The position numbers were made by a program, and so were the translations under genes. The notes below the pieces were generated by a model. It was not told where the DNA came from. It did not search any database and saw only the letters and a list, made by a program, of their open reading frames with translations. A stretch of DNA of 30,438 bases, taken from the NCBI RefSeq assembly GCF_025526975.1, contig NW_026515674.1:992001-1022438 (forward strand). The letters run 5' to 3'. This stretch comes from Fimicolochytrium jonesii. Its lineage: Eukaryota. Of the stretch, positions 12,509 to 30,438 are shown one piece after another. The stretch's first letter is position 1; every line of letters starts with the position of its first letter.

Positions 12509-15500
12509 TCAGCGGCGCCTCTTTATTGCCCAAAATACTCCTCCCGCTAGGGCCGCCACACCAGCCACCGACCCCAGGACTGAACCGGCGATAACCCCCT
12601 TTTTATGCGCCGTCATTCCGCCTTCGTCCGTTTGACCGTTCGTAGCTGTGGGAGTCGCCGTCGCAGTGGCTGAAGACGTGGTGGATGTAGCGGTCGGATT
12701 TGCATTGATATCAATTGTCCGAGAAAGCATCGTCACCGAGTAAACTCCTAGGATCGTGCAGTTGCAGGTGACAGTGCCGCTTGACTGACTGATGTAGGGA
12801 TCGCCTCCGGCCACGGTAATGCAGGATGAGGGATCCCAAGCGCTGGTGGCCTGATTCCAAACGTTACATTGAGCGGTGGAAACGGTGCTGGGCGCTCGAG
12901 GCCCCAAGAAACGACCGCGTTTCTTTTTGGCGGTCGCGGTGTATAAAGCAGGGATGGTAATGGTGATTGGAGTTTGAAGGACGTTGTTGAACTGCGTTTC
13001 GTCAATCATGACGTTCAACCCCACGACACCCGCCGTCAGTCTACAGTCACGGGGTGAAATAAGTTAGGAGAATACAATGAGAGGCCATTGATAGACTCGG
13101 GAAGAGGAAAAGCAAACGCCATGCGAGAACGATAAGAGGACTCCCTTACGTATATGATGCGCCGCCAATCCGAGCTGTCAAATTCTGCGCATCGACGGGG
13201 TAAGCACTAGACCCGCTGCAAGTGGATTGAATGACGACTTTTTGGTCCTTTCGTACACCAGCGTTCGTTAACGCAGTCCCTAATGTGCTTCCAAGCCCTA
13301 TGGAGCATGAGGCCGCAGATGCAGTTATTCGTTTCCTGATACGGAGCGTACTGGACACCCTGCTCACAGCTACTGTCGAGGGAACGGTGTCGGGGGTAGT
13401 GGGCGACACAAGGATACGAGTATCACCAGCGGTGAGTTCAGCGGTCTCTCCAGGAGGGAGGTTACCAGCCAGTGCTTGCCCGACCAAATTGAGCGTCTTG
13501 GTCAATTGTTGTGCTCCTGCAGCGCTCGCTAGAGCTGGGACGGAGCTGATGGCTGCGGCTGCGGCCTGCTGTAACACGTCGGGAGTAGCTCCAGTTTTCG
13601 CCAGAACTTGAGCGAGAGAAGAAATAGCCTCAGCCGCTGCGGCCTTTGCCGTCTCAGACACTGCAGTCGCATAAGCGCTGCCCGAGCCGCCGCTCACCAA
13701 CTGAGCAATGATGAGCGTCTTCACAGCCGCGTCCGCTGCGGTTTCGTCCCCTGATACGGTCGATATCATAGAAAGCATGACGGCTTGGTTCGCTGATTGC
13801 CGCAACGTGGGATCCGTGACTGTTGCCAAACTAGCAGTGAAAGCCGACACGGCAGCTGCAGCTTGCGTTGGGTCGGAGGAGGATGAAACCAGATTCGCGA
13901 ACGTCGATCCGACAATGCTAGCGTCCAAAGGGGCCATACTTGCGACGGTCGCGTTCAACACCAGGGGAGTTGACAAGAGTTGCGCAGACCCTTGCCGCAG
14001 TGTGTTCACGACTTGGACAGTGACATTGCCTGCGGGAAGCGTAAATGAAGCCGGATTGCTGATGGGTGTCGAGTACGCGGCGCCGTTAACGGAATAGTAG
14101 AAGGATAAGGTTCCAATGGAAGGTGTTGAGCATCCCTGCACAGCAAAGACCGTAGTGATTTCTTGGCCGGCGTTCCGGGATAAGGAGCAGCCCACCGCCG
14201 CCAGCAATGTATCAATGATTTGGAAGGTTGTGGTACTGCTTGCATTCACGGAGGGATCGTTGAGGGCATAAGCGACCACATTGGCGCTATACGACCCGAC
14301 GCCCAAGCTCGACGCTAGCAACCTAAAAACATTTATGAGATGCGTACTTGTAAGATTCCTTACATAGTATGGTGGAAACCTGAAGAAGCTTACCGTAGGA
14401 GACTTCCAGTTGCTTGTTGAACAATGTCTAAAGGTGTGGATCCAATGTAGCGGGTGACAGTCCAATTGTAACCCAGTATGGCTGGATTACTGACCGCCGC
14501 AGAGTCCACCACGATGGTATTTGCAGGCAAGTAGGTGTTTCCAGTAGCGAACGCAAGCGACGACGACAGCGTGATGAAGGTGGTAGTATTTCGCAGTACG
14601 AGGGACAACGAAGTCGTGGTGCTAGCGCGTCTGCCGTCTCGCTGAATCTGCACATCAAACCAGACTTGCCCTGGTTTCAGCGTAGCCCTGGGAACAGTCA
14701 ATATGGGAGAGGACTGTCTCCAGGTAACGTTCCCGGCGGTCCCGTTGGTAACACAAAAGTTTCCTGTACCGTCACTAGTGGATGGTGTCATGCGGCAGGA
14801 AAACTGGAAGGTCATTGGGGGTACCTTTGAATACGACGCTGCTCCTTTCAACCTATAACATGCTGATAGTGCCGTGGAACTTATTAGGGATGCGACATAA
14901 CAGACGTCTGCGGTATCCAATGACGCTGATGCATCGATGACCAAGTCCGTCGCGATAGAAGCAGTGCCTGGACCTGTGGCAAAAGCCGGTATCAAGGGAT
15001 ACGATTGGGCGTCCACGCTGAACGTAGCAGTAAGTTGCAATGTTGAGAGCAACGTGTCGGTGGAATCTAGAAAGGAGATTGTCAAATCCAATTTATTCTG
15101 TAATCCCAGCGCGGGAAGCGCTGATTGAATGCTAAGGAGGTTGCCATTCGATCCGATTTGCTGGATGCTGTTGATCCGCCACTGATATTTGGTGACGACC
15201 CCCGAGCCAACGGTTGAGTTGAGAACGGCCGTGACTTCAGCCGTTCCATATGGTTTATAAGTGTTCGTGGAGCTATCCGTCAAGGCGTTACCACCAAAGA
15301 CCAGCCGGGCCCCGACTGGGAGAGTAACCGGCGTGGTTGAAGCCGAAGGAGTCGTGGCAATGGTGGTTTTCGTTGAGGATGGGTTCAATGTACCAGACGG
15401 TCCTCGACTCACGGTGGTCGATTGGGTTGTGGGCGATGACGAGACGGTCGAAGAGGTTGCGACGCTTTGCGCACTTGCCGATGTCGTCAATGAGGCAGCG

Positions 15501-18500
15501 GGCACTTGTGTGGGCGATGACGAGACGGTCGAAGAGGTTGCGACGCTTTGCGCACTTGCTGATGTTGTCAATGAGGTAGTGGGCACCTGTGTGGGCGATG
15601 ACGAGACGGTCGAAGAGGTTGCGACGCTTTGCGCACTTGCCGATGTCGTCAATGAGGTAGTTGGCACTTGTGTGGGCGATGACGAGACGGTCGAAGAGGT
15701 TGCGACGCTTTGCGCACTTGCCGATGTCGTCAATGAGGTAGCGGGCACTTGTGTGGGCGATGATGAGACAGTCGAAGAGGTTGCGACGCTTAGCGCACTT
15801 GCCGATGTCGTCAATGAGATAGCGGCACTGGCGGAAGTACTCAACGACGTCGCGGATGCCACTGTGCTCGAAATGGAGAAGGTAGAGGGGATTGTTGCAT
15901 TGTTGGCTTCCGTAGAACTATTTCCGAGAGCGAACGCAGTGAGGTGGTTGCATGAGCACCTATAACGGTACCGCTTCGTTTGCCCAGAACCCTTCGTGTC
16001 GATCAGCTGTGGAGCCAAAGTACAGCCTGCCGAGCTCCAGCCACTATTTCGGCCTTCGTTACGACCTTTCCTCGTTGCATCTGCTGATGACGCCACGCAG
16101 ACGGTGCTAGTGTTCGCAAGTGAATCCACCCAAAAGTCGATCTTTACTGGTTGATCTCCTGTATCGGTGACCGGAATGTTATCCCCTGAGGAATTGAAAA
16201 GGGACAAGGCTACAACCTGGGAACCAATGTTCACGGAAGGGTCCTTTATGGGGGCTTCCGCCCACATCTGGACTCTCGTGTCAATGACGCCGTCGGCAGC
16301 ACTTGAATTCGTGGCACTTGCCACCGTCGTTGGTAAGTTAATGTTGACCATGACTTGAAGAAGAAATCGTCAGACTTCCTGAACATCGGTGTACTTCTTG
16401 GAAGCTTTGGCAAAACCACAACCTACCTGGGAACGCCGCGGAGACCGTTACAGGAATGACATTTGCGGACGCCTCAGACATAGACGCTAGGAAAGAAAAG
16501 CAAAGTCAGGCACTTTCGATACATAGGAAAGGTCTTTCACGAAGCTAACCTGAGACGGATTCTGTTGGTGTCACCGTTGTCAAAGAAGTAGTGCTACTTT
16601 CCGTTGTGTCGTTTGCTGTCGCGGTGTCTGCTTCAAAGTTCACGTCCATTATTCCGAAGTCTCTCATTGCAATACCGATGACGTTAGAGCTGCTGATGAC
16701 CAGTGGCTCCTGACCAACTAGGATGCCGCTGCTGACAGCGGACAAGACGTTGCTCACTGCTTCGGCGAGACGGCTGTCGTCCGTGGCAGGCGATAAGACA
16801 TCAGGCAAGCTTAGAGTCGCGTTTTGTGCAGCGTCAATCACGCTGATCAGAAGGCCAGCAGTCTCCGCAGGCATCGGTTCGGCGATAACGGGGTCCGAAA
16901 AGTCTTGTTGCGCATCACTGTCAGCCAGGATACTTGCCGATTCTGTTAGCGTTTGTAGGGAATCCAAGGCTTTATCTACGACATCTGTTGATGGGCCTGC
17001 CGAAGAAGCCGCGGAGGCCTCAAGGCCAGCCCCCAGCAAGTTCGCAACGCTGGCAACCGACTCATGACTTACGACATTGTCGGTTAGATTGGTTGCCAGA
17101 TCGATCGCTGCGGTCGCGATAGCTCCAGCGATTGTGTCGATATCTTCTTGTTGCAGCCCAACATCTGGAGAACTGATAGTGTTACTCAAGGAAAGCAGAA
17201 GCGACGCAGCCACGATAGGGCTTTGTACAGTGTCTGCAAGGTCATTGGCTACACTGTCCGGATCGAGTTCCTCCAGTTGGACGGCAACATCTGCAGCAAG
17301 CCTGTTGATGAATCCAAACGAATTTCGAACATCACACCAAATACTGATGGGGGAATCCTCGGAAGCCGCCGGAAGATAAGCGGAAAAAATGTTATCACCG
17401 GAAAACCCCTGACTGAGTTGAACGGTAGATCCATTCGCATTGTCATAGCCAAACGAATACTCCAAGCCACCGATGAAATCAATGACCTCCAGGACACGAA
17501 ATTGGAACAAGGTGCTGATCATTCCGCTGTCCGGTGTGACTTGTACGCGGCCATTGTACGGCGGAGAAACCACAAAGATTGTCATAGCCGATGAGCCCAC
17601 AAGCCGCTGAGAGTTCGTGTCTTGAGTGACGTTGATGGTGATCCTGTTATTGGAAGAGAAGGGATCAATGTCATGATAGGGGACGAGTTATGGTGAAGTG
17701 CGCATACGTATAAAATGTGCCCGCGGATAGAGCATCTACCGGTATCTGCAACGACGGCTGACTAAGTCCCGTTGTAGATGATGCTGAGATATTTGCCATC
17801 AGAGAGTCATCACTGCGGCTGGTGGTAATATTCCATTGGTAGGTGTAATCAGGTCCAAACGGATAAGCTTGAAGCGTGATATTGGAGAGGCTCACTGTTA
17901 CGTAGGGCACACCGACGGAAGAAGGTATAAAGCGGCCAGGCAGTGGCGACAATAAATCCATTCGGGTTTCTGGAAGTAAAGTGGAGTCTGCAGTCATCGT
18001 CGTTGCCGCGCTTCCGACAGCCGACCTATCTCCTTTTACCCAAAACACCTTGAAGTTGTACAGCCCAGGACCAAACGACGGATCCGGCCGAGGTATGAGC
18101 ACTGTGAATTTCTGACGGAAGTTGTCCAACGACACGCCATCGTCAGAAGCCGAAACCGCTATGTCACTCAAGGCTCCGCTGCATGGTTGGAAGGTGGAAC
18201 CAGCATCAACGCTCATCTGACACTGAACGACGAATGCCCCCGCTTCGGGGTCGCCTTCGGGGTCGAAAGCTACGAAGGAAAGGCCGAAGTCATGGAACGC
18301 GCTTAATATTGCCCCATCCTGATCAATCAAAAGTTGAAGGGGCTGCGTCTGCGGGTAGATCCACAGGGCCGCTTGTCCAGGGGCAAAAGTTCCGTTCTGA
18401 TCCTGGACAGTCAGATTGACCCATGCGCCTGCAAGCCGATTGTTCGGTGGACCAAAAGCACTTGATCCAACAACCAAAGAAGATCCGCTCGGGGTGATTG

Positions 18501-21500
18501 ACTCGGATATCAAAGTACTATCCCAAGTCCATTGATATGCGTAAGAAGGACGAACACTGCCGCACGACGGAGCGTTTGCGGCTGCGTAAATGGTAGCAGG
18601 ATTTCGAGACATAATTGGAAGCGCTGGCTGACCTTGGATGCTAACCATGAGCGCCGTACCAGGGAGAACGGTAATATCCGCGCTCGATGGTGAGCAGATT
18701 CCGAAGCCGTTGTAAAGTCGCAATTCAAAGCGTAGAGTCGTTGCCAGCCCGCTATTCATTGAGGTAACGGAATGCAAAGACTTGGAGCTAACGGTGAAGG
18801 TGAGATCGCCGGCGGTCATGTCGTAAAGCACACTATCAGGGCACGCGCCTATGCCGGGCAGACTGCACGACCAGATAGGAACTAATGTTCCACTGATGTC
18901 AGCGGACGCTGCAGCATCGACCGTCAACGAGTCACAGCTTGAGATGCTTTGTGGCGCCCTGATCTTTGCTTCGGGACGTTGCAGCACAGCCGGGGGGTCG
19001 ATTGCGAATATCTGATCGGAATTCAATATAGTTGAGTCGTTCGCGGAAGCAATTGCTGATTTTTTGAGTTGAAGCTTATCGGCAAATGGGCGAAAATCAC
19101 CGGACCCTTGAACGTGGATCAACCAGTTCAGTTATCGATAATGCATGCAGTTGACAAAAAAGCAACATACCGATTTGGATGACCAGATTGCGGTCTGATT
19201 GGAAGAAACAGAAGGTCCCTTTGCCGAGCAACTGGGTTGTGACGAACGACAGTACCCAGACGCAATCAAAAGTGCTACCGAAACTTTCGAAAGGTAAGGT
19301 AGAGGCTCCTTGATCCGTCGCCGATCTGAACAAGACGTTGATGGTCGAAAAAGATGACATCGTGGCGGTTGAAACAATCACAGAGTTATCGTTGCCACAT
19401 TTTCCTGCGTCCGTAGACACAAGTTCACACGTCGCGTTCGATTGCGTTGCGTCTATGCAACTGCTGTTGGAGATGCACCATGCGTACGTCGGCACAGCCA
19501 AACAGGCATTGCAGTCGTTGCTAATAGCAGCGGCGGGTGTTACACATCGAGACCCAACCAGAATTCCGGTGCAAATGTCGCACTTGTCACCGCTCCAATT
19601 GGCAAGACAATCGCAACCCGAAAAAGCGTTTCTAATACCGTGTCCCGAGCAAGTCGTCGGAAGACACAGAGGAGGACTCACACATGAGTCCACCGGAGAA
19701 CCCTCCACTGGAAACCATCGCACCCCCAGGTTGAGTGTGATACGCCCTTGTATGTCCTTGTTAGTCCGATGATCGCTGAAGCTTGCAGCGGCTTGTCCCG
19801 CATCTTCAATTCCAAACCAGTTTTGTGACAAATCGAGTGTAATCGGGCTCCGGTGGTTCACGTTGAGCTTGTTGCCGCACAAATTGTTTCCCGTGAAGGT
19901 GAACTGATAATTGCTTTCCACCTGTAACCCAACTTCATTCCCAACGATGGTGTTCCCGCTATAGGTCGCAATGACATCGCCCGACTGGACTCCTATCGTG
20001 TTGTTGAGGATTATGTTGTTTGTGATGCTCCCGTGAACTGAACGAAGGTGCGGAATGAGATTCAAAGACTTTCTTTGTGAACTTTAGAGGTCCGCGGTCC
20101 CGCTTACCTCCATAGAGCCCAATATTGTTTTGCGAAAACGTGGAGTCGGAGACAGTAGCATACTGCATGCTGTAAAGCGCTTGGTTGTTGTTTGTAAACG
20201 TCGTATTTGTGATAACGATGTTCTTTCCCTCCACTCCTTTAGTAAAACCTAGCCACCGGTTCAATTCAGGAGTTCAGCAAATGCCGGTGAGTTCTGGAGT
20301 CCTGATCTTTGTGATGATCAATTGAATATCTTACCATCGATCAGGCTGCTATCCAGACTGCATTTACCGCAAGCTCCGTTTATTGCTTCAGACCCATTTC
20401 GGAACTCGACATTACTCAACGCCATTTGCGAGCCCCCTACTACCGTGATAGGAGTTACAGAGCCATTGAAACTCGCGAAGTCCATAGTGAGCATAGCGGG
20501 AGTAGAAAGATGCAAGTCTCCGCATTGCACAGGTTGCAAGGCATTGCCCTCAAATACGACACGCGCGTCCGCTGTTCCATTTACGACCAGTGTTCCGCGG
20601 TTGACAAGTTGGAAGTCTAGCCCCATCTGGTAGGAATGGAAGGGGTGAGTAAAGCTACATGGACTGGTTTCATCGTTCCGAAACCCACTGCCCGCACCTG
20701 GACCGTGACTCCGGCTTGAATGATGAGCGTGACACCAGGATACACTACTAGCACCGAGTTGACCACCCATGGGCTCTGGTCAACTCCGATAATGCGATCC
20801 TCAAGAATGGATGGAGTGTTGGCAGGATCAACACCGCGATCATCCGGCGGAGCACAGTACGGGTACATATCCGCTCCAAAAGTTGCCATAGGAGCGTCCA
20901 GTACGGGGTCAAGCTAACGGGGTGGAAAAACAATAGGGGTTAGGGCTGGCCATATTTGCTTAGAGGGCTCGCTTGGGATATTATCTAACCTTTGCAATGC
21001 CAGGACCTGCTGCCTGGTATGCGTCGTACACTGTATTTCTAATCAGCGTCAAGTTGTTGCTTCCCCAGTAATTCCCTGGTATGGTCACATCGGTCGAAGT
21101 TGAGAGTCGAACATTCCATTCCTTTGTGCCACATATGGAGCAGCCGGACATTTGCAAGCCAGTCTCGGACCCAACCAAGAATAAATTTGCATTCTCTACA
21201 AAGAGACTGTTGGTGAAAGAACTCGGCGAATTCTTGCTGACCTGATCGTTGCCCACAAACAGACAGTCGGTGAAACGCATAAGGCCGGTGTCTGCGACCA
21301 AAGAGTTGTTGAAGAAAGTCGACTGGGCGAATGACGACCCAGTCAACTGGTACGTGAAGGCGTTTAGCCCATACGTGACGACGTCATTCTGGACGAAGGT
21401 ACTGTTCGTTACTGTGATACGATCTCCAATAACTGCGTGCCCGTTGCTCGTAAAGTTGCACCGTGTGACGATCGATCCAGAGACCTGGATGCCGACATCG

Positions 21501-23555
21501 TTATCAAGGAAGGTACAGTCCTCAAATATATAGGGATGTGATCCTGCCGAATTTTTGTAGTCGAAGACCTTGGCAAAGCCGGCGAATGTCACGAAGGAGG
21601 CGTAAACGGTTCCTCCATCGGTGACGATTCCAATGCGTAAGCGTTCATCAGCATACCACCCTTGCCAGATAATCGGATCATCCGCCGTCCCGTTAGCTTG
21701 AAGAGACTAGATGATGACCAGCAAGTTCGTGAGTGCTCACGTTGACGGTTTTCGTATGTAGCCCACAAGGAACTGGTTGTACGTACTCCCCGGACCACCA
21801 GAGCGCCTGCGCCGTTAACAGTGATATTGACGCCAGGTTCAATGGTGAGTGTCGCGGTTGCAAAAATTACTAACCGCTCGGAGATCACATATGGGCTGTC
21901 TGCCACCGTAATGTTTGTGTCTTCATAAACGCCTCCCGTCGTGAGACGGGTGAAATTCTTATCAGCTGGTGGATCACAATAGTAGATATCAATTCCATAA
22001 ACGCTTGCTGGCATAGCCGTGAGGAAGGGGACAACCTATTACGAAGAAGTCAAGAATGAGTCGACCAACACCTTTCATGTTGAAATTTCAGATGAACCTG
22101 ACCGAAACGAAACCCAGGTTTGAGTCCCAATATGCATCGTTGAGATATCCCCTCACAATCGCCCCGTCCGACGTTCCCCAGTAGTTCCCCGTTGCGTCGA
22201 AGTCGGCGTCCGTTCCCATTTGCACATGCCAGGTAGGGCTTCCGCAGAAAGCATTTCCGTGCACCACAGGGGGATTCGCGCCACTCACAGAAATATCCAC
22301 CGAGTTGTTCGAGAACTAAATTATAGGCGCCGAAGCGGTTAAAGACCATCAAATAGAAGTTGTAACAAGAGCTGTGACCGGTCTTACATACCAAGTTGTT
22401 GGAGAGCGTTAAGCCATCTGGGTTCGAGTGAGAGACTGAAACAGCTACCAGGCTGAATGGAGTGGGGACGAATTGAGGACTCTCTCGCACCTGAAGGACA
22501 GATTAGGGGATGCGGGCTTACTTGTTAACAAACACATTTCCATCACACTGGCCCTGAACATCTGACAGGGCCGCGACGGTGTTTCCGTCGAATATGTTGT
22601 TAGTCAGATACATATTATCGTAAAATAGGGATTCCACTCCGATTTGATTCGAGACAAATGTGCAGTTATCAACGTGGCCACTAATATACCACAATCGTGG
22701 AAGCATGATTGAGTAACTCCACTACTCAAGGCATAGAAAGCAAGGCCCTTACTGGTCGCCGGATGCGGCGTGAGCGTTATCTGTAAGTGGGGACAACCGG
22801 AACCGCGTTAGGTGAAGCCACTCATGTGAGCGCCGAAGAAACAAGCTGTTCTGACGCACTTTGGAAAACAGTCGTCGAAATCAAGTGTTCAGTCCAACTC
22901 GATACCCCTTTGAGGTTGTTGGTGAAATTTGACTGCGTAATTTGCATGCTGCCTCGATTCTCGATAGCAAATTCAAAGTTGGAGATATCAACGTAATTCA
23001 ATGTAATGACAGGTAACGCATGATCCTGAAAGGTGGTTATGCCAGCTTGAGCCCCAGTCATGCTCGTAGGTGCGGCGGAAGCACCTATGAAGGAAATCCG
23101 GGAGCCGCTTGTTCCGCTGGCGTAAAGATTTCCGTGGACTTGGATCGAGTGTCCATTGTGACGGACCACTACTCCGGGCTTTGCCGTTTGCATATGGTAG
23201 AATTAGATGAACACTGTTTAGCAAGTGGAGAACATTGAGCAACCGTACCTCCAGCGTCAAAGTCACGCCGTCAGCAATGCTGATATCGCTGATCAGATCA
23301 AACGGCGAAAGTCCGAGATACAGGGTAGAGTCAAGTGGTCGCCAAAGCACATCGAAACACCCACAGCAGCAGAAGCCCCGATAGCCGCCTGACATCTCGC
23401 TGCCACGGCAGACGCCTGTCCATTGCGAAGGAAGGGATTTTTTAGTCAAACACCAGCTACAAAGGTCAAGTACCAACTCTCAGTCTTTGGTAGGACGAGA
23501 CATAGGGACGTCTGATAAAGAGCCACACATTTATAGCCATGAAGTCTTCCTCCAT
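12509..23555 (-). CDS. Giant type I membrane protein, polycystin-1/REJ-like: 3x right-handed beta-helix modules, EGF, PSI, REJ, GAIN/GPS, Ser/Thr repeat, second REJ, second GAIN/GPS, TM; 5' end uncertain
   Basis: A chain of minus-strand ORFs is linked by short introns; in-frame joins were checked at 13041-13149 and 14323-14393. Motifs include SP(F/Y/W)...GVTL...V.G...A.GT and N(Y/W)WG/NWFG three times, EGF CSGHG...CDCLANWSGDKC and PSI CNACL...AWC. REJ-type motifs are LTVDAAAS, PPYNGRVQVTP.SG and LVIDASASLD. GPS motifs are WSSAGC...CSCNHLTAFAL and CNVW...WDPSSC...CNCTILGVYSV. The TM GVIAGSVLGSVAGVAALAGGVFWAI is followed by KRRR*. Confidence 0.8.
15428..15818 (-). repeat. Coding minisatellite, 81-bp unit x ~4.8 (SLTTSASAQSVATSSTVSSSPTQVPxx)
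   Basis: TGTGGGCGATGA recurs every 81 bp. The near-identical 27-aa units are visible in ORF 14390-16351. Confidence 0.95.
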
Positions 23556-24523: not shown

Positions 24524-25066
24524 TGTTATGATCTCGACGACGGGGGCGGAAGCGAAGTAGAGAAGACAGGGCGAGTGTGATAGGCGACAAGAGATTGTAT
24601 TGGCGAAACAAGAAACAAGGGCTAGAACAGGAGATGAGAAGAACTGGTGTTGATCTGCTGGGGGATCAGGAAGTGGGGAGCTCAGGGGAGGCGGCTATTT
24701 ATGCTTTTCTGGGAAGGCTGGGGAAGCGTGGGGAAGCAGAAGGGTACGGAATGAGAGGGAAGCCAAGAGAAGCGCCAAGGGTGGGGGAAGCATAGAAACA
24801 GAAGACTGGGGATGGGGTGGCTACGCTGAGGCTGTGGGCGGGTACGTGGGGAAGTATGGAGAAGGGTTTGTAAGCGCCGAGTGTTGGGAGGTGTGGCTAC
24901 GTGCGGCTGCGTGGAGAAATGAAGGCAGTGGCAGGTGTGGGGTAGCGCGGCTGCGTGCGGCTGCGAGGTTTGGCAGATGTCAGGTTTTGACAGGGAAATG
25001 ACATTGACTGACTGTTGGGATGCTGTCATGAGGTAAGCGCATGGTATGGACGCGTCGTCCATAACA
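24524..25066 (-). repeat. 3' LTR, 543 bp
   Basis: Perfect 7-bp inverted termini TGTTATG (24524) and CATAACA (25066), lying 3 nt downstream of the polypurine tract. Confidence 0.9.
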
Positions 25067-25584
25067 TCACCCCCTCCTTTAGCCACGGCTCCGGATGTTG
25101 TTTTGATGTTGGCAGGCTTTGGTTGGGGTTTGTCGGGGTACTTTTGGTGGAACTGGGCAACAAGCTCTTGACAGCGGGCAAGGTGTTCCACTGGCTCCCA
25201 TGTGTTCTCCGAGCTTGGCCAACCCTGCCACTTGATGAGGTACTGAAGGTGCGTGCGTCGAATACGGGAGTCAAGAATGTCTTCCACAATCCATTCCTCC
25301 TGTCCTTTGACTTCTTCTGGTGGGGTGGGTTCTGGCTCAGTTCGCTCCGGAATGGTGAAACATGGTTCAAGAAGGGAGACATGGAAGACGTTGTGAATTT
25401 TGTAGGATGGGGGAAGCTTGAGGCGATATGTGACCGAGTTGATCTTCTCCGTGATTGTGAAGGGGCCAATCTTACGGTGATCAAGTTTCTGGGAAGGTCG
25501 GAGAGTCTTGAGATTCCGCTGTAAGAGCCAGACACTGTCCCCGGGTTTCATGTCTGGGCCAGGTGCCCTCTTGGCATCGGCAAA
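24524..25584 (-). mobile_element. 3' remnant of a Ty3/gypsy chromovirus retrotransposon (integrase C-terminus, chromodomain, PPT, 3' LTR), truncated by telomere repeats
   Basis: The frame reads FADAKRAPGPDMKPGDSVWL...KLDHRKIGPF...YRLKLP...IHNVFHVSLLEP (GPY/F domain), then EWIVEDILDSR...QYLIKWQGW...NTWEP (chromodomain). The PPT AAAGGAGGGGG is at 25070-25080 on the minus strand. Confidence 0.95.
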
Positions 25585-25681
25585 GGGTTAGGGTTAGGGT
25601 TAGGGGTTAGGGTTAGGGTTAGGGTTAGGGTTAGGGTTAGGGTTAGGGTTAGGGTTAGGGTTAGGGTTAGGGTTAGGGTTA
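25584..25681 (+). repeat. Interstitial telomeric array 1, (TTAGGG)~16
   Basis: Seen directly. It has one TTAGGGG variant and is fused to integrase coding sequence at CAA|AGGGTTA. Confidence 0.98.
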
Positions 25682-26256
25682 CAAGACCCCCTGGGTTGGG
25701 TTTTATTATTGGGTTGCCTGGAACCCTAGGGACTTAGAAATTTTCGAGTTTTCTGGCTTTTGGGTGTGTTCTACAGTTCGAATTTTTGACTCTGAGGGAG
25801 GTAGTGGCGGGGGGTATTGCGCACCTAGGCAAGTCGGGGAGGACTAGGTGTGCAAGGGCAAGTGATGGGTCATATGGGCGGTGGTGCGGGTACGGGGGGG
25901 GGGGGTTGATATAAAGGGGACATATATGTTATATATACGTTATAGGACTTGTGCAAATTGGGATTTTTCTAGTGCCGATCCGGAGTTGGCGTCCTAATTG
26001 AAAAGTTGGCCCCATATCATATTCTCTAATTGAAGTACTCTCGGATTGGCAATCCGTGCGGAAACGGCTTCAGAAACTTAGAAAAACGAAATTTTCACGC
26101 GACGGGGGGTAAAAAGTTGGAAAATGTGGTGATATCTCAACATCTGGCTGACTATCCAGTGTAGGGCACTTAATGAAAGTTGATTGTAGCCTATGGTTTG
26201 CATAGCTGATGTGGTAGCAAATCTTGTGTAACCTTGCTTTTGGCTGAAGAACAGGG
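25682..26256. mobile_element. Element A' (575 bp): truncated copy of the proximal end of element A
   Basis: Matches 26795-27369 with one substitution noticed (C25954 vs G27067). It ends at GAACAGGG, where telomere repeats replace the continuation CCCCTTTTC. Confidence 0.85.
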
Positions 26257-26290
26257 TTAGGGTTAGGGGTTAGGGTTAGGGTTAGGGTTA
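26253..26290 (+). repeat. Interstitial telomeric array 2 (~6 units)
   Basis: Seen directly, with one TTAGGGG variant. Confidence 0.98.
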
Positions 26291-26543
26291 CAGGACTGTT
26301 CCCGGTTATGGGTTATTTTTGGCCATCCAAAAAGTGTCAAATAAAGTTGCTAGCAATGTTCAGGGGCATCTTACTGTAATGTGCTTCAAATCTTGGGGCA
26401 TGTTTTCCACTCAATGCCCCGGGAAAATCTGTTTTTCCGATTTTTTACTATGAAAATATTGCCAAAATGCATTTTCTGAAACTCTGAGTGGATGGATTTC
26501 GCTTAAAGTGAGATATGTCTCAGAAAACATCCCCAAAAACATC
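26291..26543. repeat. Element B copy 1 (253 bp, non-coding, AT-rich)
   Basis: Appears identical to 29872-30124 (CAGGACTGTTCCC...CCCCAAAAACATC) and is flanked on both sides by TTAGGG. Confidence 0.92.
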
Positions 26544-26699
26544 TTAGGGTTAGGGTTAGGTTAGGGTTAGGGTTAGGGTTAGGGTTAGGGTTAGGGTTAG
26601 GGTTAGGGTTAGGGTTAGGGGTTAGGGTTAGGGTTAGGGTTAGGGTTAGGGTTAGGGTTAGGGTTAGGGTTAGGGTTAGGGTTAGGGTTAGGGTTAGGG

Positions 26700-26759
<60 letters not shown>

Positions 26760-26794
26760 GGTTAGGGTTAGGGTTAGGGTTAGGGTTAGGGTTA
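26544..26794 (+). repeat. Interstitial telomeric array 3 (~42 units)
   Basis: Seen directly, with variants TTAGG, TTAGGGG and two TTTAGGG. Confidence 0.98.
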
Positions 26795-27807
26795 CAAGAC
26801 CCCCTGGGTTGGGTTTTATTATTGGGTTGCCTGGAACCCTAGGGACTTAGAAATTTTCGAGTTTTCTGGCTTTTGGGTGTGTTCTACAGTTCGAATTTTT
26901 GACTCTGAGGGAGGTAGTGGCGGGGGGTATTGCGCACCTAGGCAAGTCGGGGAGGACTAGGTGTGCAAGGGCAAGTGATGGGTCATATGGGCGGTGGTGC
27001 GGGTACGGGGGGGGGGGGTTGATATAAAGGGGACATATATGTTATATATACGTTATAGGACTTGTGGAAATTGGGATTTTTCTAGTGCCGATCCGGAGTT
27101 GGCGTCCTAATTGAAAAGTTGGCCCCATATCATATTCTCTAATTGAAGTACTCTCGGATTGGCAATCCGTGCGGAAACGGCTTCAGAAACTTAGAAAAAC
27201 GAAATTTTCACGCGACGGGGGGTAAAAAGTTGGAAAATGTGGTGATATCTCAACATCTGGCTGACTATCCAGTGTAGGGCACTTAATGAAAGTTGATTGT
27301 AGCCTATGGTTTGCATAGCTGATGTGGTAGCAAATCTTGTGTAACCTTGCTTTTGGCTGAAGAACAGGGCCCCTTTTCAATTCTCAAGTCGTGATCCCCA
27401 AGACCTCCTAACAAAAGACACGAGTACGCATGTGCAGGCAAAGGGGTTTGGCCGTGTTCTCCAGTAAACATTTTGTGAATTCCGCTGTGCATCGTAGACT
27501 GTTTGTAGGACCCTTGCGGTCTGTTATTTACCAAAACTGTTGAACATTTTCCGGTTAAAGCAGTGTTCTACAGTTTGTCCATGCAGGTTAGAGCACGTGA
27601 CCTGGGCTTGCTTGCAGGGTACGCAGAGTGAGAGGGTTGGGGTTAGAGATTTCCCAGATCACTTATTAAATTCAGCCAAACTGTCTCTGTCATGGAACAT
27701 TTAAAATGGTGGAAAGTAGTATTGCATTTATTGATTTAGAGTACATTGGAAAAGCGCACATTCAGAAAAGGGTTTTGGTGTAAAGTTCTCAACGACATTC
27801 AACAGTA

Positions 27808-29376
27808 CTAAAGGACTTCCGCAAGCATGTCACGGACTTGGTTCTGTCCAAAAGCCGTACAGCACTCAGGGTACCTGGCGCAGCGGAGACGGAAACGATG
27901 CTGACCGCCAATGCTATGAAAAGCTGAGCCTCCACAGTTGGGACATTGAAGCTGATCACGATGCTGATGGAAGAGTTCACGGATATTGCCAATGGGAGCA
28001 GCATCAGGCACTTCCCCATCCCCATGACCCCACCAAGCACGAGCAGGATCAATGACGGGTGCAATGCCTTTGAACCATCCGGGATTGAAACCAAAAGAGT
28101 TGAGAACATCTCGGAAGCGCTGACAGTCTGTCACAGTAGTCTGTCTATTGCGATCTCCTCTGAATAGAACTCTGGTGGCAGCGTCCATGATGCCATTGAT
28201 GAGACTGTAGTACTCTTCCACCGGCACAAGCTTCAAGGAGTTTGCGCCCATGTGCTGGAAAATGGTCTCGATCTGGTCCAAATGGAGATTCAAAACCATC
28301 TGTTCCGCTGATTCCAACCTGGCGCACTGAACTCGCACTTCAACTCGCATGCCAGTAATGTGGAGCGGGTGACTGTTGAGCCATTGACGTAAACCTCTCA
28401 GTGTCTCACTGCGATCCCCAAGGCTGGACTTGGTTTGGGGCATTCGCGAAGACAAAGTCGAAGAGTAGGCTTTGAGCGCATGAACAAGCTTTGGGTAGCA
28501 AGTAACCCAAACATTGGCGTGACCCGCAATGTCAAAGCGGGTGGACCCAAATCCCTCACCAAGGATGGTGAGCATGGGAAAGGTGGCTCCAACTCCACGT
28601 CCATTGTAGCGAACCAAAGGAATGACCCCATGAGTGTTCAACGTCTGACCAATGTCCCATGTGTTCAGTGCAGCATCGGGATGGTTGCTCACTTCCTGAT
28701 CAAAGGAGTAGGCTGGCAAAGTCTGAATGCGTTGCTTCATTCCATACTGCACAATGCGTACAGAGGGTGACACAGCACCAATGATGTCCTGGAACCCAGA
28801 CATCAACAGATTTTGCCGCCCAGCAATCAATCGTGAGTGATCCGTGCTTTCCCTCACGATGATCGAATGTTCATTGTGAAGTAACTCAAGAATCCTTGCC
28901 TTTGACTCTGGATTGAATGGAATGCTAATGACACAAGGTCTGCTAGCGATCCGCATCCAACCGGCGAAAGCTTCACTGTCCTTGATATGCTGCATCACTC
29001 CAGACAGTTCAACCAAGGTGAAGGCACCAAAGAGGGTGGTCAGCTTTGTGGTAGGGAGCGTAAAGGCCATCCAGTCCACATCAAAGTAGCCAGTACTGCG
29101 AAAGACCCCAAACTGCTCATCCTGAGGGGCAGGAGAGTGATGGTGTTCCTCATCTGAAGAGCTTGAGCGAGAAGTTGGCAACTCGCTGTCCTCACGCCCC
29201 TCATCACTATGATGATGAAAGTTGGAGCCGTTTGAACCAGAAATGGACAACTCCACATCCAAACTGCCGATGCTGGATGAGGTCTGGGAGATTTCGACCT
29301 GAAGGCTGGTGTTCGACATGGATGAGGTAAGGCTCGACGGCGAAAGGGTGTTGTTGGTGAATGCGGTGAAAGGCAT
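27808..29376 (-). CDS. Intronless 522-aa protein; putative Rep_trans-like tyrosine nickase with a C-terminal topoisomerase-type C4 zinc ribbon
   Basis: Uninterrupted ORF with a Ser-rich disordered N-terminus. Motifs are VDWMAFTLP (D101), WDIG (D241), CYPK (Y294), GMRVEVRV (E346) and CPNCGG-x15-CARYPECC (from C478). The ORF itself is well supported; the function is inferred. Confidence 0.6.
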   Translation of the reverse strand: MPFTAFTNNTLSPSSLTSSMSNTSLQVEISQTSSSIGSLDVELSISGSNGSNFHHHSDEGREDSELPTSRSSSSDEEHHHSPAPQDEQFGVFRSTGYFDVDWMAFTLPTTKLTTLFGAFTLVELSGVMQHIKDSEAFAGWMRIASRPCVISIPFNPESKARILELLHNEHSIIVRESTDHSRLIAGRQNLLMSGFQDIIGAVSPSVRIVQYGMKQRIQTLPAYSFDQEVSNHPDAALNTWDIGQTLNTHGVIPLVRYNGRGVGATFPMLTILGEGFGSTRFDIAGHANVWVTCYPKLVHALKAYSSTLSSRMPQTKSSLGDRSETLRGLRQWLNSHPLHITGMRVEVRVQCARLESAEQMVLNLHLDQIETIFQHMGANSLKLVPVEEYYSLINGIMDAATRVLFRGDRNRQTTVTDCQRFRDVLNSFGFNPGWFKGIAPVIDPARAWWGHGDGEVPDAAPIGNIRELFHQHRDQLQCPNCGGSAFHSIGGQHRFRLRCARYPECCTAFGQNQVRDMLAEVL

Positions 29377-29485
29377 GGTGTTGGCCCTGGTGTTGGCGAT
29401 GGTATTGGTGTCGGTATTGGCGTAGGTGCTGAAACGTGGTGGTGGTGCGTGCTTTTGGAGGGAGGGAATCTGAACAGCCCTCTCC

Positions 29486-29495
29486 TTTTATAAAA
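29486..29495 (-). promoter_or_regulatory. Putative TATA box for the 522-aa ORF
   Basis: The palindromic TTTTATAAAA lies ~110 bp upstream of ATG 29376, just downstream of a long poly(dA:dT) tract. Confidence 0.5.
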
Positions 29496-29529
29496 GTCTG
29501 GCCAAAGGCAACCTGGAGCTGTTCTTCAG

Positions 29530-29828
29530 TTTTTTTCTGCAACCCTACCTTTTTTTTTCCTAACTTTTTTTTCTTCCTTTTTTTTTTCACTAATCCTTTT
29601 TTTTCTCGACTTTTTTTTTTCACTAATCCTTGTTTTTTTCCTGACTTTTTTTTTTCCACTAATCCATTTTTTTTCGACTTTTTTTTTTCACTAAAGTTTT
29701 TTTTTTTTGACTTTTTTTTTTTCACTAATCTTTGTTTTCTTCCTGACTTTTTTTTCCACTAATCCTTTTTTTTTCGACTTTTTTTTTTCACTAAAGTTTT
29801 TTTTTTTTGACTTTTTTTTTTTTCACTA
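29530..29828. repeat. Punctuated poly(dT) tract with recurring GAC(T)n and (T)nCACTAA motifs and a ~100-bp higher-order duplication
   Basis: The block CTGAC(T)nCCACTAATCC(T)nCGAC(T)nCACTAAAG(T)nGAC(T)nCACTAA occurs at ~29641-29728 and again at ~29743-29829. Confidence 0.9.
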
Positions 29829-29871
29829 AGGGTTAGGGTTAGGGTTAGGGTTAGGGTTAGGGTTAGGGTTA
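29829..29871 (+). repeat. Interstitial telomeric array 4 (~7 units)
   Basis: Seen directly; perfect repeats. Confidence 0.98.
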
Positions 29872-30124
29872 CAGGACTGTTCCCGGTTATGGGTTATTTT
29901 TGGCCATCCAAAAAGTGTCAAATAAAGTTGCTAGCAATGTTCAGGGGCATCTTACTGTAATGTGCTTCAAATCTTGGGGCATGTTTTCCACTCAATGCCC
30001 CGGGAAAATCTGTTTTTCCGATTTTTTACTATGAAAATATTGCCAAAATGCATTTTCTGAAACTCTGAGTGGATGGATTTCGCTTAAAGTGAGATATGTC
30101 TCAGAAAACATCCCCAAAAACATC
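29872..30124. repeat. Element B copy 2 (253 bp)
   Basis: Appears identical to 26291-26543. Confidence 0.92.
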
Positions 30125-30438
30125 TTAGGGTTAGGGTTAGGTTAGGGTTAGGGTTAGGGTTAGGGTTAGGGTTAGGGTTAGGGTTAGGGTTAGGGTTAGG
30201 GGTTAGGGTTAGGGTTAGGGTTAGGGTTAGGGTTAGGGTTAGGGTTAGGGTTAGGGTTAGGGTTAGGGTTAGGGTTAGGGTTAGGGTTAGGGTTAGGGTT
30301 AGGGTTAGGGTTAGGGTTAGGGTTAGGGTTAGGGTTAGGGTTAGGGTTAGGGTTAGGGTTAGGGTTAGGGTTAGGGTTAGGGTTAGGGTTAGGGTTAGGG
30401 TTAGGGTTAGGGTTAGGGTTAGGGTTAGGGTTAGGGTT
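30125..30438 (+). repeat. Terminal telomere (TTAGGG)n, right chromosome end
   Basis: 314 bp of TTAGGG run to the end of the window, with the G-rich strand reading 5'->3' toward the end. Confidence 0.95.

Follow-up and report, generated by a model that had tools for sequence, protein, structure and literature searches.

In yeast, the Y′ elements form tandem units that are embedded in telomere repeats and encode a helicase. In the accessible parts of the literature compared here, the known telomere-attached elements use a reverse transcriptase (RT), and the eukaryotic rolling-circle transposons use HUH enzymes. MoTeR1 and MoTeR2 of Magnaporthe oryzae are arranged as head-to-tail copies between TTAGGG tracts, with ORF-bearing and ORF-less types that have common ends (PMC7367193, accessible part). 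Terminons and Athena Penelope-like elements join G-rich overhangs and form truncated head-to-tail chains, as set out in the accessible part of PMC6431247.

According to the accessible part of PMC13107129 (2026), HUH enzymes are found in all three domains of life, and the Rep_trans family appeared restricted to bacteria, its sister family Rep-Arvir being archaeal. For initiators with the TBP fold, the accessible text of PMC13595969 describes bacterial and archaeal cases only. Five motifs of the Rep family are set out in PMC5714925 (in part). In RepDE, residues D46, D142 and E214 bind the metal, Y191 is the nucleophile, these residues lie on beta-strands and a 5′ adduct is formed (PMC4797284, in part). 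The Rep transposons of eukaryotes are the Helitrons and the Replitrons, both with HUH enzymes, in the available text of PMC10288648. For IS91, the available text of PMC13181058 describes an origin at the right end, a bottom-strand substrate and frequent one-ended events.

Inserts in a telomeric array

The window, i.e., the whole stretch of 30,438 nucleotides that was analysed, ends in an array of telomere repeats and inserts with the following features, where a slash marks a junction:

25584..25681, plus strand: innermost telomere tract, 98 bp, which begins at AGGG within a Ty3/chromovirus integrase remnant
25682..26256, no strand assigned: A′, truncated copy with the fixed left end, from its alignment to 26795-27369
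26253..26290, plus strand: interstitial telomere tract between A′ and B, 38 bp
26291..26543, no strand assigned: Unit B copy 1, 253 bp, starts GGGTTA/CAGGAC, no long ORF
26544..26794, plus strand: interstitial telomere tract between B and A, 251 bp
26795..29828, minus strand: Unit A, longest copy seen, TTAGGG tracts on both sides; left end GGGTTA/CAAGAC, right end CACTAA/GGGTTA within a tandem repeat
29829..29871, plus strand: interstitial telomere tract between A and B, 43 bp
29872..30124, no strand assigned: Unit B copy 2, 253 bp, 100% identical to copy 1
30125..30438, plus strand: outermost telomere tract, 314 bp, which reaches the window end

From the chromosome outwards, the order is therefore Ty3 remnant, 98 bp of repeats, A′, 38 bp, B, 251 bp, A, 43 bp, B and 314 bp. 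The Ty3 integrase remnant consists of SH3 and chromo domains and is cut by the innermost telomere repeats. The window also carries GPS/REJ-domain genes. A preliminary description of this DNA had placed a 3-kb unit between TTAGGG arrays, and its coordinates proved exact, with tracts at 26544-26794 (251 bp) and 29829-29871 (43 bp). A′, the two B copies and the common left-end motif are array features additional to that description.

All four inserts start with 5′-GGGTTA/CARGAC-3′ and lie in one orientation; they represent two independent junction types (A and B), not four. The junction register is common to A and B, as are five of the six next bases, for which hand arithmetic on two junction types gives a chance of ~1 in 1,000. 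Otherwise, A and B are unrelated, except for their GGTT-rich first 60 nt; in the non-coding arm of A, GGTT words occur three times in the first 60 nt versus 0.25 times per 60 nt in the remainder. The fixed left end lies downstream of the gene, where the G-rich strand of the element has its 5′ terminus, and the copies combine this one fixed end with variable right ends. A′ differs from the first 575 nt of A (26795-27369) by one mismatch (99.8% identity) and stops at an AGGG of the element, from which telomere repeats run on. No target-site duplication was observed at the inserts, which lie within a repeat array where a duplication could hide. The tracts 3′ of both B copies carry two variant telomere repeats at the same positions, indicating that B was copied together with at least ~80 bp of telomere tract; the tracts that precede the two B copies differ. 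Unit B is a candidate non-autonomous partner of A, or else the stub of a sister element.

Two non-coding parts of Unit A flank the gene:

26795..27807, minus strand: non-coding arm, 1 kb, 3′ of the ORF, with the fixed left end (candidate origin) at its terminus
29550..29828, minus strand: A-tract repeat, ~8 copies of 32-34 bp, each beginning with TTAGTG, upstream of the promoter

The hexamer AATAAA occurs on the minus strand at 27732 and 26820, the latter 25 nt from the fixed end. Because the right end of A lies inside the 32-34 bp A-tract repeat, A may itself be truncated. A comparison of the fixed ends gave no strong hairpin in common. The observed/expected CpG ratio is 0.60 in the ORF, 0.65 in the arm and 0.41 in B, compared with 0.66 in the Ty3 remnant and 1.02 in the host region; the depletion in A and B, as in the Ty3 remnant, would fit a methylated repeat.

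A telomere-resident mobile element at this chromosome end is, in our assessment, very probably real. Its layout is that of a telomeric retroelement, with head-to-tail copies in telomere repeats, a fixed 3′ end and 5′ truncations, and an alternative origin is that A is a 3′-terminal fragment or a non-autonomous member of a Terminon/Athena- or MoTeR-like family. An RT supplied in trans or encoded upstream would then prime on the G-overhang, and the Rep-like ORF would be accessory cargo. MoTeR arrays match the locus in polarity, 5′ truncation, ORF-less partners, ends common to the types and healing from short seeds (PMC7367193, accessible part), and Terminons, mostly 5′-truncated, bear accessory Rep ORFs (PMC6431247, accessible part). 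The AATAAA close to the fixed end and the possible incompleteness of A point the same way. Nevertheless, we consider this origin unlikely, as the ORF list, Pfam and a motif search revealed no RT ORF in the array within the window, whereas the MoTeR1 product is an RT that bears a REL endonuclease. Additionally, Rfam gave no match at E <= 5 over 25500-30438, hammerhead included, in a search that a divergent ribozyme could escape; neither the RT nor the hammerhead ribozymes by which Terminons and Athena are defined were found. The MoTeR types also share hundreds of terminal bases, whereas A and B share only a few.

The encoded protein and its predicted catalytic residues

The coding part of Unit A comprises the following features:

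27808..29376, minus strand: ORF P0001, 522 aa, start 29376, end 27808
28261..29082, minus strand: putative catalytic core, aa 99-372 (D101, D241, Y294, R344, E346), from homolog conservation and register with Rep_trans/Phage_CRI
27859..27945, minus strand: C4 zinc-ribbon-like motif (C478, C481, C499, C505/506), Cys in all three proteins
29486..29492, minus strand: putative TATA-like box TATAAAA, 116 nt 5′ of the ATG

P0001 consists of a Ser-rich N-terminus of ~90 aa, the putative Rep_trans/gpII-like core, a helical region and a putative C4 zinc ribbon. The longest ORF in 300 shuffles of Unit A was 232 aa, as against 522 aa. From 7,989 scored candidates, only two homologs emerged, P0002 of Fimicolochytrium jonesii (E 3e-86) and P0003 on a JGI contig of 4,850 nt, with identities to P0001 of 44% and 37%. 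The host is a eukaryote whose telomeres consist of TTAGGG, and P0002, from the one homolog with a species name, makes a chytrid fungus likely. A repeat of the homolog search with an alignment returned the same two proteins and added none, and a search among shorter proteins gave no homolog. P0002 corresponds to two consecutively numbered F. jonesii gene models of identical sequence, which suggests a tandem pair; from the consecutive numbers we infer that no gene model lies in between, a further point against the retroelement origin. P0001 is collinear with both homologs in one tblastn segment, so that no intron is needed, in agreement with the single intact, intronless ORF first described, and the TATA-like box reported with it is present as TATAAAA at 29492-29486 on the minus strand. 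Beyond the P0001 stop codon, the sequence holds no trace of the C-terminal domain that the homologs have.

Also as described before, P0001 shows no RT ([YF]xDD), Walker A or HUH/HUQ motif, and the lack of a Walker A distinguishes it from the helicase of yeast Y′. The HUH/HUQ motif gave no match in any of the three proteins, and P0002 has a single FKDD, outside any RT context. For the proposed zinc ribbon, the cysteines are conserved in all three proteins, but the Pfam matches are all sub-threshold (PF12760, E 0.036; PF13408, E 0.094; PF01396, E 0.015).

The preliminary description had tentatively assigned P0001 to a Rep_trans-like nickase on the basis of D101, D241, Y294, R344 and E346, and these residues do occur in that order. 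All three proteins have D241, Y294, R344, E346 and the cysteines of the ribbon without change, and D101 is invariant in the two that cover it, since P0003 lacks the N-terminus. A predicted metal triad (D, D, E) and a predicted catalytic Tyr are thus conserved, ordered and at family spacing: the D/D/Y/E intervals are 140/53/52 in P0001, 140/54/48 in Ff (M13) gpII and 96/49/23 in RepC, closer to the inovirus gpII (Phage_CRI) than to pT181 RepC. Y304 is a second invariant Tyr.

For the comparison, we used Phage_CRI (PF05144) and Rep_trans (PF02486) proteins as references, 23 in the MAFFT alignments and 20 in the hhalign profile. A five-motif chain derived from the references only, applied to the columns of the three proteins, picked D101, D241, F276, Y294 and E346, with a score reached by 4 of 5000 column shuffles (4996 of 5000 beaten). 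On single proteins the chain was weaker, its score being reached by 8 and 26 of 3000 shuffles, and one anchor moved in each. P0001 scored 22, above the best unrelated ORF (18) and below the reference members (56-101). In untrimmed MAFFT alignments with the 23 references, all five residues fell in catalytic columns in both modes, and R344-x-E346, the RxE of motif IV, was present in all three proteins and aligned with that of all 23 references. In shuffles of the trimmed set, D and Y were both in register in 0 of 100 cases, and each alone in 12 of 100. Against the 20-sequence profile, hhalign aligned Y294 and RxE of the core, with D101 in a second segment; the score of 22.5 exceeded those of 230 of 230 shuffles, and the probability was 3%, true members being equally low in the same set-up (RepC versus Ff gpII, 0.1%). 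As these three tests have their data in common, they count as one line of evidence.

The assignment to the family did not hold for the Pfam score or for RxDxAxD. Pfam gave no Rep_trans or Phage_CRI match for P0001 at E <= 1, or for P0002, P0003 and the P0001 core at E <= 10, while four of four reference proteins were matched. The RxDxAxD of motif I is absent, its place being taken by TWDIGQT, TFDIG and TFDVG in the three proteins; the Arg of this motif is also missing in some gpII proteins (WID, ALD, HLD). The YxKxxE region of motif III is degenerate (YPKLVH in P0001, YPRIVH in both homologs), and aligning the full length against seven gpII proteins gave no match. For Rep-Arvir, there was no Pfam row for DUF7845 (PF25227) or a MarR-like wHTH, in a search with no archaeal references and with a Pfam copy in which PF25227 was unconfirmed. 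P0001 resembles gpII/Phage_CRI and pT181 RepC/RepD/Rep_trans in the order and register of D, D, Y and RxE and in the absence of HUH, and differs from them in its lack of a Pfam match, its degenerate RxDxAxD and YxKxxE and its extra C4 zinc ribbon. Unit A lies on a eukaryotic chromosome end, unlike their plasmids or phages.

Structure and feature searches were less informative. The models of P0001 had a low-confidence pLDDT of 35.6 when unguided and of 52 when seeded with Rep sequences; fold searches with the former were uninformative, and Foldseek with the latter gave no match at E <= 0.001. A structure search of the ESM Atlas with a low-confidence model of P0002 remained below TM 0.5 throughout, and PDB sequence searches were blank or returned chance matches. 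Among ESM Atlas features, the top match of P0002 was a Bacteroidota cluster automatically named G2P N-terminal domain, with a score of 0.82, a lead only, since scores below 0.9 are matched by a shuffled protein in a third of cases. For P0001, two Bacteroidota clusters of the same sizes recurred, and a cluster with 12% Rep_trans members ranked 30th; both are likewise leads only.

The blank profile and PDB sequence searches, the uninformative fold searches and the Atlas scores within the range of shuffled proteins would all be expected if P0001 were unrelated to Rep_trans, i.e., another nuclease, a recombinase or a host-derived zinc-ribbon protein in which the motif order arose by chance; the reference family was, moreover, chosen after Rep_trans had been proposed. 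The shuffle controls of the motif chain, MAFFT and hhalign, a spacing nearly identical to that of gpII and an Atlas search that was unsteered towards Rep proteins argue against such a coincidence, which we regard as quite improbable. Judged from its residues, P0001 probably works like a Rep_trans/gpII nickase.

A possible route onto chromosome ends

The array, the fixed GGGTTA/CARGAC end, the variable right ends and the residue conservation are direct observations, from which we infer all the catalytic steps that follow. D101, D241 and E346 would bind metal, and Y294 would cleave the G-rich strand at GGGTTA^CARGAC, remaining joined to the 5′ end of the element. Host replication and a helicase would displace the nicked strand towards the chromosome end, where a telomeric 3′-OH ending in TTA, provided by the G-overhang or by a second nick, would attack the phosphotyrosine and receive the strand. 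With no strict terminator, transfer could stop early, as in A′, or run on into the downstream tract, which would account for B and its variant repeats; from short seeds at the new end, telomerase would then restore the telomere. B would be moved in trans, because the end motif is common to A and B. Such one-ended rolling-circle transfer, in which telomeric TTA ends receive the G-strand of the element, is the reading we favour over its rivals, tentatively and with chances a little short of even.

The proposed route has its closest parallels in IS91, Helitrons and Replitrons, which likewise combine a fixed with a variable end, lack a target duplication and have a non-autonomous partner. The origin at the right end and the one-ended events of IS91 match the geometry proposed for Unit A (PMC13181058, available text), the IS91 enzyme being an unrelated HUH protein, and the absence of a helicase is common to Unit A, Replitrons and IS91 (PMC10288648, available text). 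All three of these groups use HUH enzymes, whereas P0001 has no HUH motif. Telomere repeats are not named as their target in the available text of PMC13181058 and PMC10288648, the word 'telomer' having no occurrence in the latter.

The nickase could also be real and yet only provoke recombination or replicate intermediates, the unit itself spreading in the manner of subtelomeric repeats, through recombination, break-induced replication or circles that re-enter by recombination at TTAGGG tracts. All of the protein evidence for a nickase applies equally to this explanation. The duplication of B together with its following tract, the two variant repeats intact, is in its favour, and D-loop/BIR expansion of telomeric arrays has been documented for MoTeRs (PMC7367193, accessible part). 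Recombination alone, however, leaves the shared junction register and the CARGAC of the otherwise unrelated A and B unexplained, and the tracts that lead into the B copies are not the same; we hold this explanation to be unlikely. The circles of yeast Y′, which recombine back via telomere tracts, provide a model for it.

Under one-ended transfer, the element could, with chances likewise a little short of even, found a new order of DNA transposons in eukaryotes, in which a TBP-fold, non-HUH rolling-circle transposase of the Rep_trans/gpII type cuts the telomeric G-strand and adds the element and its partner to chromosome ends. This would place a branch of the TBP-fold initiator superfamily in eukaryotes, with a transposase chemistry new to them, and would represent a DNA-only addition of sequence to chromosome ends, i.e., telomere parasitism without an RT. 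If the reading is true, a nickase-ligase with site specificity for single-stranded TTAGGG DNA would also be a useful tool. Should the enzyme assignment fail, the array would still represent an undescribed family of telomere-resident elements.

Occurrence beyond the array

In the literature searched, in which subscription journals were thinly covered, neither a eukaryotic Rep_trans-type enzyme or element nor a chytrid telomere element of this kind was described. No relatives were found in viral, metagenome or prokaryote contigs, and three weak matches in phage and plasmid records (E 0.01-1) were judged to be chance. A scan of metagenomes for the junction pattern returned 15 matches; no homolog accompanied any of them, and only one lay close to a telomere-like run.

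On account of its homologs and of matches in a soil metagenome, the ORF was judged not to be an assembly artefact; the array order is that of one assembly. The soil metagenome contains two pieces of 151 nt that differ from the ORF at 0 and 3 positions, neither bridging a junction, and a further soil metagenome record gave a partial match of 38 nt. Based on these matches, the sequence also exists outside this assembly.

Protein termini and a second tyrosine

A Trp-rich domain is common to the C-terminal ends of the two homologs of P0001 (the 522-aa putative Rep_trans/gpII-like nickase of unit A), spanning aa 470-523 in P0002 and aa 445-520 in P0003. P0001 lacks this domain and instead carries a Ser-rich N-terminus of 90 aa; no remnant of the Trp-rich domain was found in the window 3′ of the P0001 stop codon. 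Besides the candidate catalytic Y294, the ORF contains a second invariant Tyr:

28465-28467: codon 304, second invariant Tyr, within LKAY

The surrounding LKAY is similar to the motif III sequence LKAYLK in one of the gpII homologs; this residue is a candidate alternative or second catalytic Tyr.

At three Bacteroidota loci (L096, L117 and L118), a Rep_trans gene adjoins similar-looking ORFs of 220-240 aa. These loci may be small prophages, and they may also correspond to the clusters placed first by the ESM Atlas.

Fixed ends and upstream repeats

Along the ORF strand, the sequence of the fixed end is GTCTTG in unit A (26795-26800) and GTCCTG in unit B (29872-29877), and within these two ends occur CTTG and GTCC, which PMC13181058 gives as the tetranucleotides of IS91 and IS1294b. 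Because the enzymes of these elements are of the HUH type, the match is probably a coincidence. Upstream of the ORF lies a repeat array:

29550-29828: A-tract repeats, ~8 copies of 32-34 bp, between promoter and telomere tract

Every repeat begins with TTAGTG (minus strand), an inverted near-telomere word, and the array is possibly an insulator or binding array.

Sequences adjoining the telomere

12509-23400, minus strand: large gene or genes with many introns, REJ and GPS domains
24682-25583: remnant of a Ty3/chromovirus integrase, with SH3_Tf2-1 and chromo domains

The minus-strand gene or genes, which also contain a Ser/Thr repeat (five copies of 81 bp), would encode a polycystin/adhesion-GPCR-like surface protein. 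Telomere repeats, beginning at an AGGG, stand in place of the upstream part of the integrase remnant, a junction resembling the product of de novo healing at a broken chromosome end.
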